Below are positions 1 to 3,435 of a DNA stretch of 3,435 nucleotides, one piece after another. Position numbers and translations under genes: made by a program. Every line of letters begins with the position of its first letter. Within the stretch, counting starts at the first letter, position 1. Location: IMG/VR virus record IMGVR_UViG_2778261688_000003. One strand, 5' to 3'. Below the pieces are notes generated by a model, which had not been told where the DNA came from, searched no databases, and saw only the letters and a list, made by a program, of their open reading frames with translations. This DNA comes from a virus. Its lineage: Duplodnaviria > Heunggongvirae > Uroviricota > Caudoviricetes.

Positions 1-489
1 ATGTTGGATGTATTTACTCCATTGTTGAAACTTTTTGCTAACGAGCCACTCGAAAGACTTATGTATACGATTATCATTTTTGGTCTCACTCTCTGGCTGA
101 TACCGAAAGAGTTTACTGTCGCATTCAATGCTTATACTGAAATACCTTGGCTCTTTCAGATTATCGTTTTTGCCTTTTCTTTCGTGGTCGCCATTTCCTT
201 CTCAAGATTGCGAGCACATATTCAAAAGCATTATTCATTACTACCAGAGCAACGAGTATTGCTTCGTTTATCTGAGAAAGAAATCGCTGTATTTAAAGAT
301 TTCCTTAAAACAGGAAATCTTATTATCACTTCTCCTTGCCGTAACCCGGTTATGAAAAAATTAGAACGGAAGGGCATCATTCAACATCAGAGTGATAGCG
401 CAAACTGTTCTTATTATCTCGTCACCGAAAAATACTCCCATTTTATGAAGTTATTCTGGAACAGCAGGAGTAGACGTTTTAATCGTTAG
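1..489 (+). CDS. sieB: Superinfection exclusion protein B (SieB-like), 162 aa, small inner-membrane protein
   Basis: Complete ORF ATG(1)..TAG(487-489) from the six-frame track. Two hydrophobic helix-length segments (MYTIIIFGLTLWLIPKEF; IPWLFQIIVFAFSFVVAISF) followed by a charged C-terminal half. Size and sequence recalled as matching Rac prophage SieB; not verified by search. Confidence 0.8.
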   Translation: MLDVFTPLLKLFANEPLERLMYTIIIFGLTLWLIPKEFTVAFNAYTEIPWLFQIIVFAFSFVVAISFSRLRAHIQKHYSLLPEQRVLLRLSEKEIAVFKDFLKTGNLIITSPCRNPVMKKLERKGIIQHQSDSANCSYYLVTEKYSHFMKLFWNSRSRRFNR

Positions 490-641
490 CTTACTGTGTG
501 CTTCTCCAACCATCGGCGCGCACCAGTTTCGGTTTTAAATGTTTTGCTTTTGGTATACGTCATGGCAGTGAACGTTCCATCCTGGTTGGGGAACACGCCG
601 CACACCAGGGATTCGTTGTTGCCGAGGTCGATTTTTTGCAT
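486..641 (-). CDS. ydaF: Small prophage protein, 51 aa (YdaF-like), function unknown
   Basis: Hand translation of the minus strand: ATG at 641..639, TAA at 488..486, product MQKIDLGNNESLVCGVFPNQDGTFTAMTYTKSKTFKTETGARRWLEKHTVS. Below the size cut-off of the supplied ORF track. The 51-aa size and position between sieB and ydaG match the Rac gene order as I recall it. Only a weak SD (GAGA). Confidence 0.6.
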   Translation of the reverse strand: MQKIDLGNNESLVCGVFPNQDGTFTAMTYTKSKTFKTETGARRWLEKHTVS

Positions 642-651
642 TTTGCGAATC

Positions 652-786
652 TCACATCTTGTTGCTACGTATAGCGACTTCTGCCTGCCAGAGATCCCAG
701 TCGTTGCTGCGTAAAGCCTGCACAGCCTGGTTGTAAGTGATACCGCAACAATCCATCAAATACTGAACTACTTCGTAATGCACCAT
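652..786 (-). CDS. ydaG: Small prophage protein, 44 aa (YdaG-like), predicted single three-helix UBA-like domain
   Basis: Hand translation of the minus strand: ATG at 786..784, TGA at 654..652, product MVHYEVVQYLMDCCGITYNQAVQALRSNDWDLWQAEVAIRSNKM. Strong SD AGGGGAGAG (revcomp of 792-800) about 6 nt upstream of the ATG. Size and position match Rac ydaG as recalled. Confidence 0.7.
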   Translation of the reverse strand: MVHYEVVQYLMDCCGITYNQAVQALRSNDWDLWQAEVAIRSNKM

Positions 787-955
787 CTTATCTCTCCCCT
801 TAACGCCGGGTGGCGGAACTAACTGCTGCACTGCAAAATTTGAATCCCGCCGTCATGTTCATACGCCTCGGGCTGGCTACTTAACCCCTTACCACTGCCT
901 GGTAACTCGAAGTATTGCCCGGCGTTCTGTGGGGCGGGGTGGGTGGTATGCTGGA

Positions 956-984
956 ACTATAGGTAATGCCTAATTGATTGTCAA
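956..984 (-). promoter_or_regulatory. PL-like leftward sigma70 promoter: -35 TTGACA (984..979), 17-nt spacer, -10 TATAGT (961..956); predicted TSS near 949
   Basis: Read directly on the minus strand: consensus -35 hexamer and a 5/6 match -10 with optimal 17-nt spacing. It points toward ydaG-ydaF and is flanked or overlapped by two palindromic operator sites. Confidence 0.5.
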
Positions 985-997
985 TAGGCTATGCCTA
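960..997. promoter_or_regulatory. OL-like operator: two palindromic sites TAGGT-AAT-GCCTA (960-972) and TAGGC-TAT-GCCTA (985-997), centres 25 bp apart
   Basis: Same 5-3-5 palindrome family as the three sites between racR and ydaS. The sites sit within the promoter spacer and directly upstream of the -35, mirroring the OR arrangement. Confidence 0.5.
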
Positions 998-1094
998 ATG
1001 TTTTGAGCGTAACCTAATAGGTGATGGCGACAGCAGAAAGTGATGGGGGGGTTAAATAACGGAATCCAGGAGTTTTCCGTCAGACCATATAAGT

Positions 1095-1571
1095 TTAAGT
1101 TCCAGTTTTTGTGATGTTCTGGCTTTTCCGTTCAGATTCAAGAGCTTTCAGATACTTACCCACTTTCATTTCCATCGCTGCTATGTAGGCGCGAACATCG
1201 TGGTCAACCCAATCTGGTTCTGTAGCATTTCCAGATAACAGGAAAGCTACAATCGCTCTTATTTCATCAGAGGCTGCTTGATAAAGGTTGTTTATATCTA
1301 AAAGTTCACTTTTTGTATCTGAATTGGTGGGGGTTGGTATGGGGTATTCGTTAAGCCCCCAATGCTCTGGACCAACAACATCAGAAAAGAAACGCCATAA
1401 TTCTGGAAGTTTATCTTTACTTATAGAGCCTTTCTTAATCCAGTCATAAATTGATGGTGGTTGGACTTTAAAGTGGCGTGCGACCTCCGCCTTTGATTTG
1501 ACGGATCCCGATGCGATTTTTTTGTTAATGGCCTGCTCTATCGCTCGGCCTAAGTCTTTACCACTAAGCAT
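1095..1571 (-). CDS. racR: Prophage repressor RacR (CI-like HTH repressor), 158 aa
   Basis: ORF from the track, minus strand, ATG at 1571..1569, TAA at 1097..1095. SD AGGAG (revcomp of 1583-1587) 11 nt upstream. N-terminal HTH-like segment (KAEVARHFKVQPPSIYDWIKKG). Divergent from a Cro-like gene across an operator-rich intergenic region. Size and sequence match RacR as recalled. Confidence 0.88.
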   Translation of the reverse strand: MLSGKDLGRAIEQAINKKIASGSVKSKAEVARHFKVQPPSIYDWIKKGSISKDKLPELWRFFSDVVGPEHWGLNEYPIPTPTNSDTKSELLDINNLYQAASDEIRAIVAFLLSGNATEPDWVDHDVRAYIAAMEMKVGKYLKALESERKSQNITKTGT

Positions 1572-1593
1572 TGCTTAATATTCTCCTATGCGC

Positions 1594-1622
1594 ATTACAT
1601 TAGGCAATCCCTACCCTTACTG
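1594..1622 (-). promoter_or_regulatory. Candidate racR maintenance promoter (PRM-like): -10 TGTAAT (1599..1594) with a poor -35 region between operator sites 1 and 2
   Basis: 5/6 -10 hexamer on the minus strand about 23 nt upstream of the racR ATG, with no recognisable -35 (CAGTAA). This would fit an activator-dependent promoter with a very short leader, but it is weakly supported. Confidence 0.25.
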
Positions 1623-1664
1623 CATTAGGCACAGCCTATTGACAATTGCGTTAGGCGTCGCCTA
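1601..1664. promoter_or_regulatory. OR-like tripartite operator: TAGGC-AAT-CCCTA (1601-1613), TAGGC-ACA-GCCTA (1626-1638), TAGGC-GTC-GCCTA (1652-1664); centre spacing 25 and 26 bp
   Basis: Three 13-bp palindromes (5-3-5) read directly from the sequence. The racR-proximal site is the most degenerate (CCCTA half-site), analogous to a weak OR3-type site. Confidence 0.6.
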
Positions 1665-1668
1665 ATAT
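1639..1668 (+). promoter_or_regulatory. PR-like rightward sigma70 promoter for ydaS-ydaT: -35 TTGACA (1639-1644), 18-nt spacer, -10 TAATAT (1663-1668)
   Basis: Consensus -35 with a 4/6 -10 that retains T at -12, A at -11 and T at -7. Operator site 3 lies in the spacer and site 2 abuts the -35. ydaS SD GGAG (1683-1686) is 8 nt before ATG 1695. Confidence 0.55.
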
Positions 1669-1694
1669 TTCTGTGTGTTTTTGGAGTTCATTCG

Positions 1695-1991
1695 ATGAAA
1701 AAAGAGAACTATTCATTCAAGCAAGCTTGTGCTGTTGTCGGTGGGCAATCAGCAATGGCTAGGCTTTTAGGTGTATCACCTCCAAGCGTAAATCAATGGA
1801 TCAAAGGGGTACGTCAATTGCCTGCCGAGAGATGTCCAGCAATTGAACGTGCAACAAGAGGTGAGGTTCTGTGCGAAGAACTTCGTCCTGATATTGACTG
1901 GTCATATTTACGACGTTCGGCATGTTGTTCGCAGAATATGTCAGTGAAGCAACTAAATGACAGTAACAAATCCTCATTTGATCATACCTGA
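1695..1991 (+). CDS. ydaS: Cro-like HTH DNA-binding protein YdaS, 98 aa
   Basis: ORF from the track, ATG 1695 to TGA 1989-1991, good SD. First gene rightward of the repressor, in the Cro position. HTH-like segment (QSAMARLLGVSPPSVNQWIKG). Size matches Rac YdaS. Confidence 0.88.
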   Translation: MKKENYSFKQACAVVGGQSAMARLLGVSPPSVNQWIKGVRQLPAERCPAIERATRGEVLCEELRPDIDWSYLRRSACCSQNMSVKQLNDSNKSSFDHT

Positions 1992-2013
1992 AACATCAAG
2001 AGGCAAATGATTC

Positions 2014-2436
2014 ATGAAAATCAAGCATGAGCACATCGAATCAGTGTTGTTTGCCCTAGCAGCCGAAAAAGGGCAGGCATGGGTAGCCAATGCAATTACT
2101 GAAGAATATCTGCGCCAGGGGGGCGGCGAATTGCCCCTGGTTCCAGGCAAGGACTGGAACAATCAGCAGAATATCTATCACCGTTGGTTGAAAGGTGAAA
2201 CGAAAACGCAAAGAGAAAAAATTCAGAAGCTGATCCCAGCAATTCTGGCAATCCTTCCGCGCGAGCTGCGTCACCGACTCTGCATCTTCGATACCCTGGA
2301 ACGCCGTGCATTACTGGCGGCGCAGGAAGCGTTAAGTACGGCAATTGATGCGCATGATGATGCAGTCCAAGCCGTTTACCGGAAAGCGCATTTCAGCGGC
2401 GGCGGTTCTTCCGACGATTCTGTCATTGTTCATTAA
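2014..2436 (+). CDS. ydaT: YdaT, 140 aa, CII-position protein of the Rac early-right operon
   Basis: ORF from the track, ATG 2014 to TAA 2434-2436. SD AAGAGG (1998-2003) 10 nt upstream. Follows ydaS after a 22-nt gap. Size and sequence match Rac YdaT as recalled. Confidence 0.88.
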   Translation: MKIKHEHIESVLFALAAEKGQAWVANAITEEYLRQGGGELPLVPGKDWNNQQNIYHRWLKGETKTQREKIQKLIPAILAILPRELRHRLCIFDTLERRALLAAQEALSTAIDAHDDAVQAVYRKAHFSGGGSSDDSVIVH

Positions 2437-2499
2437 GCAAAAGTTTCCATGCTGTTTGTGCTTATTCTAAGCCACCGGGCAGCATCATACGGGGCAATT

Positions 2500-3435
2500 A
2501 TGGCCGCATTACCATACATGCAACTGTACATAGCTGATTACCTGGCTGACACCATGCATTTGTCAGCAGAGGAGCATGGTGCGTATTTGTTGCTGATGTT
2601 CAATTACTGGCAAACAGGAAAGCCAATACCTAAAAACAGGCTGGCAAAAATTGCCCGTCTGACTAACGAGCGATGGGCTGATGTTGAACCATCCTTGCAG
2701 GAGTTTTTTTGCGATAACGGCGAGGAATGGGTGCATCTTCGGATTGAGGAAGATCTGGCATCAGTCAGGGAAAAATTAACCAAAAAATCAGCCGCAGGAA
2801 AAGCATCTGTTCAGGCCAGAAGAAGCAGAAAGGAAGCAGATGTTCAAACAAAACAAGAGAGAAATTTAACAGGTGTTCAAACAGATGTTGAAGTGGTGTT
2901 TGAACATGATGTCAACACAAAGGCAACTAATAAAGATACAGATAAAGATCTAAAAACAGATCCCCCCCTAAATCCCCCCCGGGGGAATCGAGGTGTCAAA
3001 AAGTTTGACCCTCTGGATATTACTTTGCCGAACTGGATTTCTGTCTCGCTTTGGCGTGAGTGGGTTGAATTTCGCCAGGCATTGCGAAAACCGATTCGAA
3101 CGGAGCAGGGCGCTAACGGGGCGATAAGCGGTCGCGAGACGTTACGGGCTCTGGAGGCTAAAACCGGTGCATCAAGGTATTACATAAGCACTCTCGCCAG
3201 AGAACTAGTCGCCAGTGGTGATGTTTACAATTCAGGCTACGGATTATTCCCGTCTGAGCAGGCGCGTAAAGACTGGCAAAACGCCCGCAAAAAACTATCA
3301 AGGACAAAGGTGAAGAAACCGGTTGTGGTTGATCCTGACCTTATCTGGTCATTACCAGACGGAGAAATACGCCGTTACGACAGGCGTCTGAACATAATCT
3401 GTCGCGAGTGCCTGAAGAGTGAAGTTATGCAGTGA
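2500..3435 (+). CDS. ydaU: YdaU-like DUF1376-family prophage protein (putative replication-initiator position), ending at the window edge with TGA
   Basis: Long ORF 2449..3435 in the track. The start is placed at ATG 2500 (M18) because the sequence MAALPYMQLYIADYLADT... looks like the conserved family N-terminus and a G-rich SD-like element (GGGG 2491-2494) precedes it. ATG 2449 and ATG 2518 lack an SD. Start choice is uncertain. Confidence 0.75.
   Translation: MAALPYMQLYIADYLADTMHLSAEEHGAYLLLMFNYWQTGKPIPKNRLAKIARLTNERWADVEPSLQEFFCDNGEEWVHLRIEEDLASVREKLTKKSAAGKASVQARRSRKEADVQTKQERNLTGVQTDVEVVFEHDVNTKATNKDTDKDLKTDPPLNPPRGNRGVKKFDPLDITLPNWISVSLWREWVEFRQALRKPIRTEQGANGAISGRETLRALEAKTGASRYYISTLARELVASGDVYNSGYGLFPSEQARKDWQNARKKLSRTKVKKPVVVDPDLIWSLPDGEIRRYDRRLNIICRECLKSEVMQ
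2837..2919. repeat. Iteron-like cluster inside ydaU: TGTTCAAACA direct copies (2841-2850, 2874-2883), inverted copy TGTTTGAACA (2897-2906), CAGATGTT (2837-2844, 2882-2889), degenerate copy GATGTCAACA (2908-2917)
   Basis: Read directly from the sequence. Followed by an A-rich stretch (2920-2960) and two C7 tracts. Position in the linker of the putative initiator gene resembles the arrangement of lambda ori inside gene O. Confidence 0.4.

Follow-up and report, generated by a model that had tools for sequence, protein, structure and literature searches.

RacR operators between racR and ydaS in the cryptic prophage Rac, and a predicted mirror-image operator-promoter cassette beyond the repressor gene

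Between the divergent genes racR and ydaS of the cryptic lambdoid prophage Rac, related palindromes recur at almost even distances, and the question raised by this locus is which molecule reads them, and whether they make up the whole of a regulatory switch or only one side of it. The DNA analysed, called the window here, is a stretch of 3,435 nucleotides from a virus of the Caudoviricetes (IMG/VR record IMGVR_UViG_2778261688_000003). Database comparison gave 100% identity of bases 1-3126 with the Rac prophage of K-12-type genomes, and of bases 850-1750 with E. coli K-12 strains, in which they are annotated as racR and ydaS. The interval under study is the 123-bp racR-ydaS intergenic region of Rac. 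On its left lies racR (1095-1571, minus strand, 158 aa), whose conserved DNA-binding module is the N-terminal helix-turn-helix domain (residues 1-77). On its right lies ydaS (1695-1991, plus strand), the first gene of the PydaS transcript, which encodes a Cro-type helix-turn-helix protein (YdaS_toxin, E = 2.6e-31; P22_Cro, E = 3.4e-9). Divergent repressor and cro-like genes, here 123 bp apart, are a feature of lambdoid right operators. The remaining genes are a SieB-family gene (1-489, plus strand; open reading frame and domain search), a small, ydaF-like DUF1391 gene (486-641) and a small ydaG-like gene (652-831), both leftward, a YdaT-family gene (2014-2436) and a DUF1376/DUF977 open reading frame (2449-3435). 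For K-12 RacR the domain search returned a weak HTH_17 match only, with no Peptidase_S24 (self-cleavage) domain, which does not place it with the SOS-cleavable LexA/CI-type repressors.

A sequence-only reading of this DNA had described three palindromes of one family in the interval 1594-1694, and every one of their coordinates holds on the sequence. Site 1 (1601-1613, TAGGCAATCCCTA) reads TAGGC-AAT-CCCTA, with one mismatch, while site 2 (1626-1638, TAGGCACAGCCTA; TAGGC-ACA-GCCTA) and site 3 (1652-1664, TAGGCGTCGCCTA; TAGGC-GTC-GCCTA), the latter published as O1, are perfect. The operator is not tripartite, as that reading had it, since K-12 Rac has four inverted repeats (Wisniewska, 2023; PMC11014345). 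The fourth, published as O3, occupies 1565-1577 (TAAGCATTGCTTA; TAAGC-ATT-GCTTA), centred on the racR ATG (1571..1569), and thus lies closer to racR than site 1, which had been taken for the nearest. It is a perfect palindrome with two mismatches to the consensus, and it also holds CTTAG, a published off-target site of the regulator C.Csp231I (PMC6765115). Inside racR, 1548-1553 reads GCCTAA (minus strand TTAGGC), a lone half-site that the literature already lists as an additional one (PMC9638921). Sites 1, 2 and 3 are spaced by 25 and 26 bp from start to start, and 36 bp separate 1565 from 1601, so that the four starts at 1565, 1601, 1626 and 1652 show the lambdoid right-operator feature of several related, imperfectly symmetric sites at about 2-2.5 helical turns. 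When TAGGCNNNGCCTA was searched with up to two mismatches, six matches were found in the 3435 bp against 0.90 expected (standard deviation 0.99, maximum 5), a count that none of 200 dinucleotide-preserving shuffles reached. These six are the four right-hand sites and a left-hand pair at 960-972 and 985-997; the pair and 1565-1577 lie outside the interval read before.

As to the molecule, the answer is largely in the literature. Krishnamurthi et al. (2017) found three palindromic repeats in the 123 bp between the genes. On this DNA RacR formed three complexes in EMSA, and a single one on a 49-bp fragment with one repeat; RacR was enriched there in ChIP-qPCR, and an intergenic-region::gfp fusion was repressed in a RacR-dependent manner (PMC5700373). 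Wisniewska et al. (2022) showed that purified RacR protects the racR-ydaS region from DNase I; the lowest RacR concentration sufficed for the PydaS part, and higher ones protected the part near racR as well. The same work gave ATTAGGC as the logo of the RacR monomer or half-site, and named the inverted repeats (T/A)TAGGC-n3-GCCTA(T/A) O1-O3, with O1 in PydaS and O3 across the racR ATG (PMC9638921). The later study that counted four repeats found RacR to be an octamer by size exclusion (Wisniewska, 2023; PMC11014345). The locus, the motif and the promoter boxes of the window match this published operator set of K-12 Rac. The literature search returned nothing relevant in the way of RacR ChIP-exo or SELEX data. 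Nothing was found that contradicts RacR binding, and as the best explanation of the whole it is considered very probable that the palindromes serve as operators for RacR, the prophage's repressor of CI type. The footprinting or EMSA and the start-site mapping that the sequence-only reading had suggested had thus already been reported, with an outcome in its favour (footprints, EMSA and ChIP-qPCR for the binding sites; PMC9638921, PMC5700373). The palindromes, the PydaS promoter and the analogy to lambda are all published, with footprints and mapped start sites; a reading of the letters alone recovered a real, experimentally verified operator, and these sites add nothing to the literature.

The product of the neighbouring gene has also to be weighed, as the palindromes could be mainly operators of the Cro-like YdaS, with RacR acting elsewhere or indirectly. 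The helix-turn-helix segments of the two proteins are alike (RacR 18-46 and YdaS 9-37, 29 residues, 41% identity, pairwise E = 2e-5) and share a PPS(I/V)..WIK motif, which is compatible with shared sites, and RacR-type proteins weakly match the YdaS_toxin Pfam model. YdaS-like Cro genes are co-conserved with the sites, following the rightward promoter in eight of nine compared loci, all but a decayed Klebsiella one. YdaS is moreover a published autorepressor that acts on its own promoter and reportedly not on racR (PMC9638921), and in the prophage CP-933P the footprints of YdaS and of the repressor PaaR2 overlap (PMC8630535). RacR alone, however, shifts and footprints this DNA at 50 nM or less (PMC9638921, PMC5700373), and a switch run mainly by YdaS is judged very unlikely. 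A lambdoid switch is expected to have repressor and Cro share their sites, and binding of YdaS there would therefore add to the RacR explanation and be no alternative to it.

RacR operators in this region would be expected to bear on promoters, and the placement of the promoters agrees with this. PydaS, the PR equivalent, consists of TTGACA (1639-1644), an 18-nt spacer and TAATAT (1663-1668), and thus spans 1639-1668 on the plus strand with 10 of 12 consensus positions in the promoter scan, which found only two sigma-70-like sites in 800-1800, this being one. Site 2 ends at 1638, directly adjoining the -35, and the spacer holds site 3, which has its final TA in common with the -10 (a 2-bp overlap), so that the operators cover a rightward early promoter, as in a lambdoid right operator. 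The scan bears out the arrangement proposed from sequence, and so does experiment: primer extension found a single ydaS start site, assigned to TTGACA/TAATAT, and replacement of TAATAT by CCCGGG abolished the promoter, which drives ydaS (PMC9638921). The published run-off of 81 nt, obtained with a template that ends at -184, puts the calculated start at about G1675, 7 nt after the -10, which confirms the -35/-10 assignment. In transcription in vitro, PydaS was repressed only when RacR preceded the polymerase, and in vivo it was nearly inactive even without Rac (PMC9638921), which implies that it is subject to other factors. Footprints of YdaT, too, cover PydaS, and YdaT binds at a YdaT-box on the ydaT ATG as well (PMC11879457); occupancy of PydaS in vivo therefore involves several proteins.

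On the minus strand, three racR promoters have been mapped (PMC9638921). The published run-offs for PracR1-3 (111, 145 and 154 nt) do not quite agree with the stated -10 boxes, differing by 2-4 nt, and only the published boxes were therefore used for placement. The PracR2 -10, AGTAAG, falls at 1621..1616, between sites 1 and 2 (box from PMC9638921), and the -10 region of PracR3, the PRM equivalent that gives a leaderless mRNA, at 1578-1585, with the published box GAGAAT at 1585..1580 (PMC9638921). The TGTAAT that had been proposed as the racR -10 (1599..1594, read as ATTACA at 1594-1599 on the plus strand) does not fit: it is absent from the three analysed promoters (PMC9638921), and in its place the O157 locus, 87% identical, has TGCGAT and phage 683R6 has TGCAAT. 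What is conserved instead is an xAxxAT box that aligns across relatives. In K-12 it reads GAATAT (1583..1578), overlaps the published GAGAAT and lies 6 nt ahead of the ATG; Proteus has GATAAT and Achromobacter TAGAAT. All relatives keep the same minus-strand order, namely TTGCCT within an operator half-site, 17-18 nt, xAxxAT, six bases and ATG; in K-12 the -35-like TTGCCT lies at 1607..1602, inside site 1. The leaderless racR promoter thus has its -35 built into one operator and its start point at the centre of another.

These relatives came from a scan with the RacR protein, one genome per species, which yielded diverged homologues in Mixta, Morganella, Klebsiella, Proteus, Achromobacter and Pigmentiphaga, and from BLAST, which added an O157 prophage, Klebsiella phage KpF5 and Escherichia phage 683R6. 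Across ten RacR-type loci, from Enterobacterales to Burkholderiales, the sites keep their positions relative to -35, -10 and repressor ATG. The rightward cassette recurs in all ten as TAGGC-N3-(G/T/A)CCTA, TTGAC(A), 5-7 nt, TAGGC-N3-GCC and TAATAT, with the position of site 3 kept throughout; the rightward promoter hexamers of the Klebsiella locus (-35 and -10) are decayed. A second cassette, downstream of the repressor gene and pointing away from it, is found in eight of the ten loci with a spacer of 17 nt each time; of the other two, phage 683R6 is identical to K-12 there, and in the Klebsiella locus no second cassette was found within the range examined. The ATG-spanning site is conserved over the repressor start codon in 10 of 10 loci. 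Its in-gene half is always GCTTA, with the Leu codon CTT followed by a codon beginning with A in every locus, and GCTTA is the sequence nearest to GCCTA that still encodes Met-Leu.

The protein shows a matching division. Residues 1-77 of RacR are 74-96% identical across the loci, while the C-terminal part retains 10-44% in the diverged loci (28-44% for residues 78-158 in the diverged enterobacterial ones) and 88% in the close O157 locus; in Achromobacter and Pigmentiphaga it is replaced by a longer tail with Peptidase_S24 (E = 1e-13 and 4e-15). Given a conserved N-terminal domain and a diverged or replaced C-terminal part, the operator code tracks the N-terminal domain alone, and the co-conservation of this domain with the sites supports it as the probable DNA binder. 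Loci L014-L016, with only marginal protein matches, have no site clusters. With a DNA-binding domain that stays fixed and a C-terminal oligomerisation or cleavage domain that is swapped, these proteins form a natural series of domain swaps in which to follow the exchange of induction mechanisms while the operator code remains the same.

The same comparison bears on whether the palindromes act as nucleic acid structures, that is, as RNA or DNA hairpins such as intrinsic terminators, and not as sites for a protein. A scan does flag 1650-1666 and 985-997 as terminator-like, with 5-7 base pairs in the stem and a T-rich tail behind it. Site 3, however, is upstream of the mapped PydaS start at about 1675 and so outside that transcript, the stems are no longer than 5-7 pairs, and the arms are invariant without covariation across relatives while the 3-nt loop varies; the terminator reading was rejected on position, short stems and missing covariation. 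In a set of 96 non-redundant half-sites, positions T1, A2 and G4 vary hardly or not at all (1.9-2.0 bits), conservation is strong at G3 and C5, A-T is favoured in the flank, and the centre takes 13 different triplets. Invariant arms around a free centre, in fixed register with the -35/-10 hexamers in both cassettes, indicate a site for a dimeric protein and not an RNA hairpin, and direct RacR footprints have been published (PMC9638921). An Rfam scan of the whole window (E up to 1) placed no RNA family at the palindromes or at the leftward leader, its sole match being a chance CRISPR-repeat match at 3328-3366. A hairpin function is regarded as extremely unlikely.

In the distant relatives, the right-hand operator has three sites, located in the PR spacer, against the -35 and over the ATG, and spaced by 25 and 35 bp. 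By sequence, site 1 of K-12 corresponds to the ancestral site that abuts the -35 in these three-site relatives (TAGGCAATTCCTA). An extra 25-bp unit, which in K-12 consists of CCCTTACTGCAT plus TAGGCACAGCCTA, is present only in E. coli-type loci (K-12, O157, phage 683R6 and E. ruysiae), and K-12-type Rac gained its fourth right-hand site through it. This additional unit, together with the 25-26 bp periodicity and the repeat family D2, would be compatible with a tandem duplication, and the likeness of the repeats could then be a functionless leftover, or else chance. A site count that no shuffle reached speaks against this, as do half-sites conserved across hosts of two proteobacterial classes while linkers and centres diverge, and RacR binding shown by experiment (PMC9638921, PMC5700373). 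A functionless repeat, already refuted by the published footprints and the conservation pattern, is left with a probability close to nil, and the palindromes are treated in what follows as RacR operators.

The geometry suggests how such operators could work. RacR, shown by footprints to bind the palindromes, occupies each 13-15 bp site, (A)TTAGGC-N3-GCCTAA(T), as a dimer and through the N-terminal helix-turn-helix domain. On sites 3 and 2 it blocks RNA polymerase, as the transcription in vitro shows, and silences the ydaS-ydaT transcript, whose products are cro/cII-like. At higher RacR, the sites nearer racR (site 1 and 1565-1577) would be filled, with a presumed order and cooperativity. As site 1 covers the -35 of the leaderless promoter and 1565-1577 its start point and the ATG, racR would be self-regulating, and this geometry and the concentration dependence of the footprints point to RacR repressing its own gene when it is abundant. 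Published work also reports that low RacR activates PracR3, which the arrangement of site 1 and 1565-1577 does not explain. Positive autoregulation, if real, needs another geometry, because site 1 sits on the -35 of the main racR promoter, unlike lambda OR2.

Whether the switch has a second side is a question on which the left-hand pair bears. The putative OL-type site at 985-997 (TAGGC-TAT-GCCTA) is perfect and abuts the -35 of a predicted leftward promoter of PL type; that at 960-972 (TAGGT-AAT-GCCTA, one mismatch) lies in the spacer of this promoter and overlaps its -10 by 2 bp. The promoter itself (956-984, minus strand) has TTGACA at 984..979, a 17-nt spacer and TATAGT at 961..956, with 11 of 12 positions matching, and its predicted start near 949 would read into ydaG and ydaF and on towards kilR. 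The segments 977-1011 and 1612-1646 form an inverted repeat (I1, 35 nt, 83% complementary). It is inferred that 956-997, downstream of racR, is a mirror-image second copy of the operator-promoter cassette and the OL/PL counterpart, which would give Rac the lambdoid feature of a matching operator set on a leftward promoter beyond the repressor gene. A third left-hand site at 1004-1016 (TGAGCGTAACCTA) was rejected, having three mismatches and lying 19 bp from 985, out of phase; counterparts with two mismatches occur in loci L003 and L007. At about 1011-1021, ACCTAATAGGT forms a different palindrome. No description of a Rac left operator or leftward promoter was found in the full-text papers searched, the main RacR papers included, and the pair at 960-997 with its promoter is apparently undescribed, a statement that is provisional, as several relevant sources lie outside the literature search.

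The surroundings of this cassette mark an edge. The transcribed leader (about 795-947) shares 85-98% identity with the one that precedes a ydfA-type gene in phages Tritos and 606R7, which are of a different immunity type and carry dicB/dicF. This homology stops immediately downstream of the Rac leftward -10, and the two phages have promoter-like hexamers of their own at the same position. Such a stop means that the immunity region ends on its left side at about 950, and the alignment makes the Rac leftward promoter the positional counterpart of dicBp of Qin. A structured RNA in the leader was also considered and rejected, the z-score of -2.2 from RNA folding of 786-949 on the minus strand being too weak.

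In published transcriptomes (including PMC11014345), ydaG, ydaF, kilR, ydaE, racC and recET are strongly induced on loss or antagonism of RacR, and loss of RacR derepresses ydaG, ydaF, kilR, racC and recET by 40-70 fold or more. The silencing of kilR has been attributed in a published account to Rho-dependent termination within racR. RacR on the left pair would, judging from the sequence, repress the leftward promoter for ydaG-ydaF-kilR and the genes beyond; if true, the OL/PL counterpart would directly explain the derepression of the leftward genes on RacR loss. More speculatively, a RacR octamer might join the left operator to the right one over a distance of about 650 bp, a proposal made because of the published RacR octamer and the lambda precedent. 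Taken together, the family that shares the RacR N-terminal domain, from Enterobacterales to Burkholderiales, may carry a complete two-operator switch built from one duplicated cassette, in which 960-997 of K-12 would directly silence ydaG-ydaF-kilR out to recET and the octamer would bridge to the four-site right operator. This combined proposal is favoured only slightly over its being wrong in some part.

Among known systems, the closest is the published operator set of K-12 Rac itself, which has the same DNA, motif, logo, TTGACA/TAATAT promoter and analogy to lambda CI/Cro. The likeness to lambda OR/OL consists of divergent repressor and cro genes, related palindromic operators with a spacing of about 2.4 helical turns, of which the strongest covers the PR spacer and -10, a leaderless repressor mRNA, a repressor octamer and, as predicted for Rac, a second operator set on a leftward promoter past the repressor gene. 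The lambda-like layout put forward by the sequence-only reading stands for the operators over PR as an analogy of function, but an incomplete one, as YdaS reportedly does not repress racR and K-12 RacR is without the S24 self-cleavage domain. Rac differs from lambda further in its sites of 13-15 bp with a 3-bp centre (17 bp in lambda), in its four right-hand sites in K-12, one over the repressor start codon (three in lambda), and in having the site near the repressor promoter on the -35 of that promoter, not beside it. The distance between left and right operators is only about 650 bp in Rac, while that of lambda is about 2.4 kb.

Qin, with dicBp and DicA, resembles Rac in that the leader downstream of the Rac leftward promoter is like that of the DicB/DicF phages, with a promoter at the same position; it differs in that repressor and operators are unrelated and the homology ends at the -10. 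A fuller parallel is CP-933P of E. coli O157:H7, with PaaR2, YdaS and YdaT (Jurenas et al., 2021; PMC8630535). It shows the same order of repressor, divergent ydaS and ydaT, four evenly spaced intergenic palindromes, a leaderless repressor gene and an octameric repressor, while its palindromes are of an 18-bp GTTTAGTAA type, its repressor is another protein, and a toxin-antitoxin pair lies downstream of paaR2 (PMC8630535). In CP-933P a PL/OL counterpart has been identified and shown to be repressed (PMC8630535), whereas the left operator of Rac is predicted.

A second candidate operator-promoter cassette, directed leftward, is located downstream of racR at 956-997, where RacR-type sites at 960-972 and 985-997 are placed on a predicted TTGACA-17-TATAGT promoter. 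The cassette is a mirror of the one at PydaS, the promoter between racR and ydaS, it is kept in eight diverged RacR-type loci, and it coincides exactly with the limit of homology to phages of other immunity types. In the literature searched, no earlier description of it was found. Just past the left-hand pair, at 1011-1021, lies the palindrome ACCTAATAGGT, with the order of its half-sites reversed (CCTA..TAGG), which is shared with two E. coli-type relatives, the O157 prophage locus and Escherichia phage 683R6.

The predicted leftward transcript would carry a leader at ~786-949 on the minus strand, with 85-98% identity to DicB/DicF-type (Qin-like) phages, and part of this leader is present in 3701 of 5426 complete E. 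coli genomes. The C-rich 5' end of the leader (CCACCCACCCCGCCCCAC) resembles a Rho loading site. The predicted fold of the minus strand has an energy of -53.8 kcal/mol (z = -2.2), and the leader had no match in Rfam.

Both cassettes, along with TAGGC-N3-GCCTA operators, are retained in the loci of Achromobacter and Pigmentiphaga, where the RacR-type genes (L012, 2501-3595, and L013, 2501-3403, respectively) encode repressors of another architecture. The N-terminal DNA-binding domain of RacR is 74-75% identical in the two, and its C-terminal domain is replaced by a Peptidase_S24 domain of the LexA/CI self-cleavage type. In Klebsiella sp. R390 (L010, 2360-2520), all three right-hand sites are retained and the hexamers of the rightward promoter have decayed to TTTTAT and TAATGC; no Cro-like ORF follows this promoter, and the left-hand pair was not found within range. 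This locus looks like a degenerating prophage that still holds its repressor.

The operator at 1565-1577 covers the start codon of racR and contains CTTAG (minus strand, 1568..1564), published as an off-target site for C.Csp231I, a regulator of restriction-modification (PMC6765115). This overlap may account for the reported interference between RacR and C.Csp231I. Another start codon, that of ydaT (2014), is spanned by the inverted repeat ATGATTCATGAAAATCAA at 2007-2024, which is the already published YdaT-box (PMC11879457).

Identity to K-12 ends at base 3126. In K-12, as in nearly all complete E. coli genomes, 3127-3435 does not follow on directly from the sequence before it. This makes the ORF at 2449-3435 an in-frame fusion of DUF1376 (YdaU) and DUF977. 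The junction at 3126/3127 points either to a source strain with a deletion or recombination, or else to a composite sequence.

In Klebsiella phage KpF5 (L002, 928-2082), a DUF450 gene separates the left-hand operator pair from the gene for the RacR-type repressor, and in Pigmentiphaga this pair lies ~2.1 kb from the start of the repressor; both observations suggest cargo genes between the two elements. In lambda, the slot held by the DUF450 gene in KpF5 is filled by rexAB.
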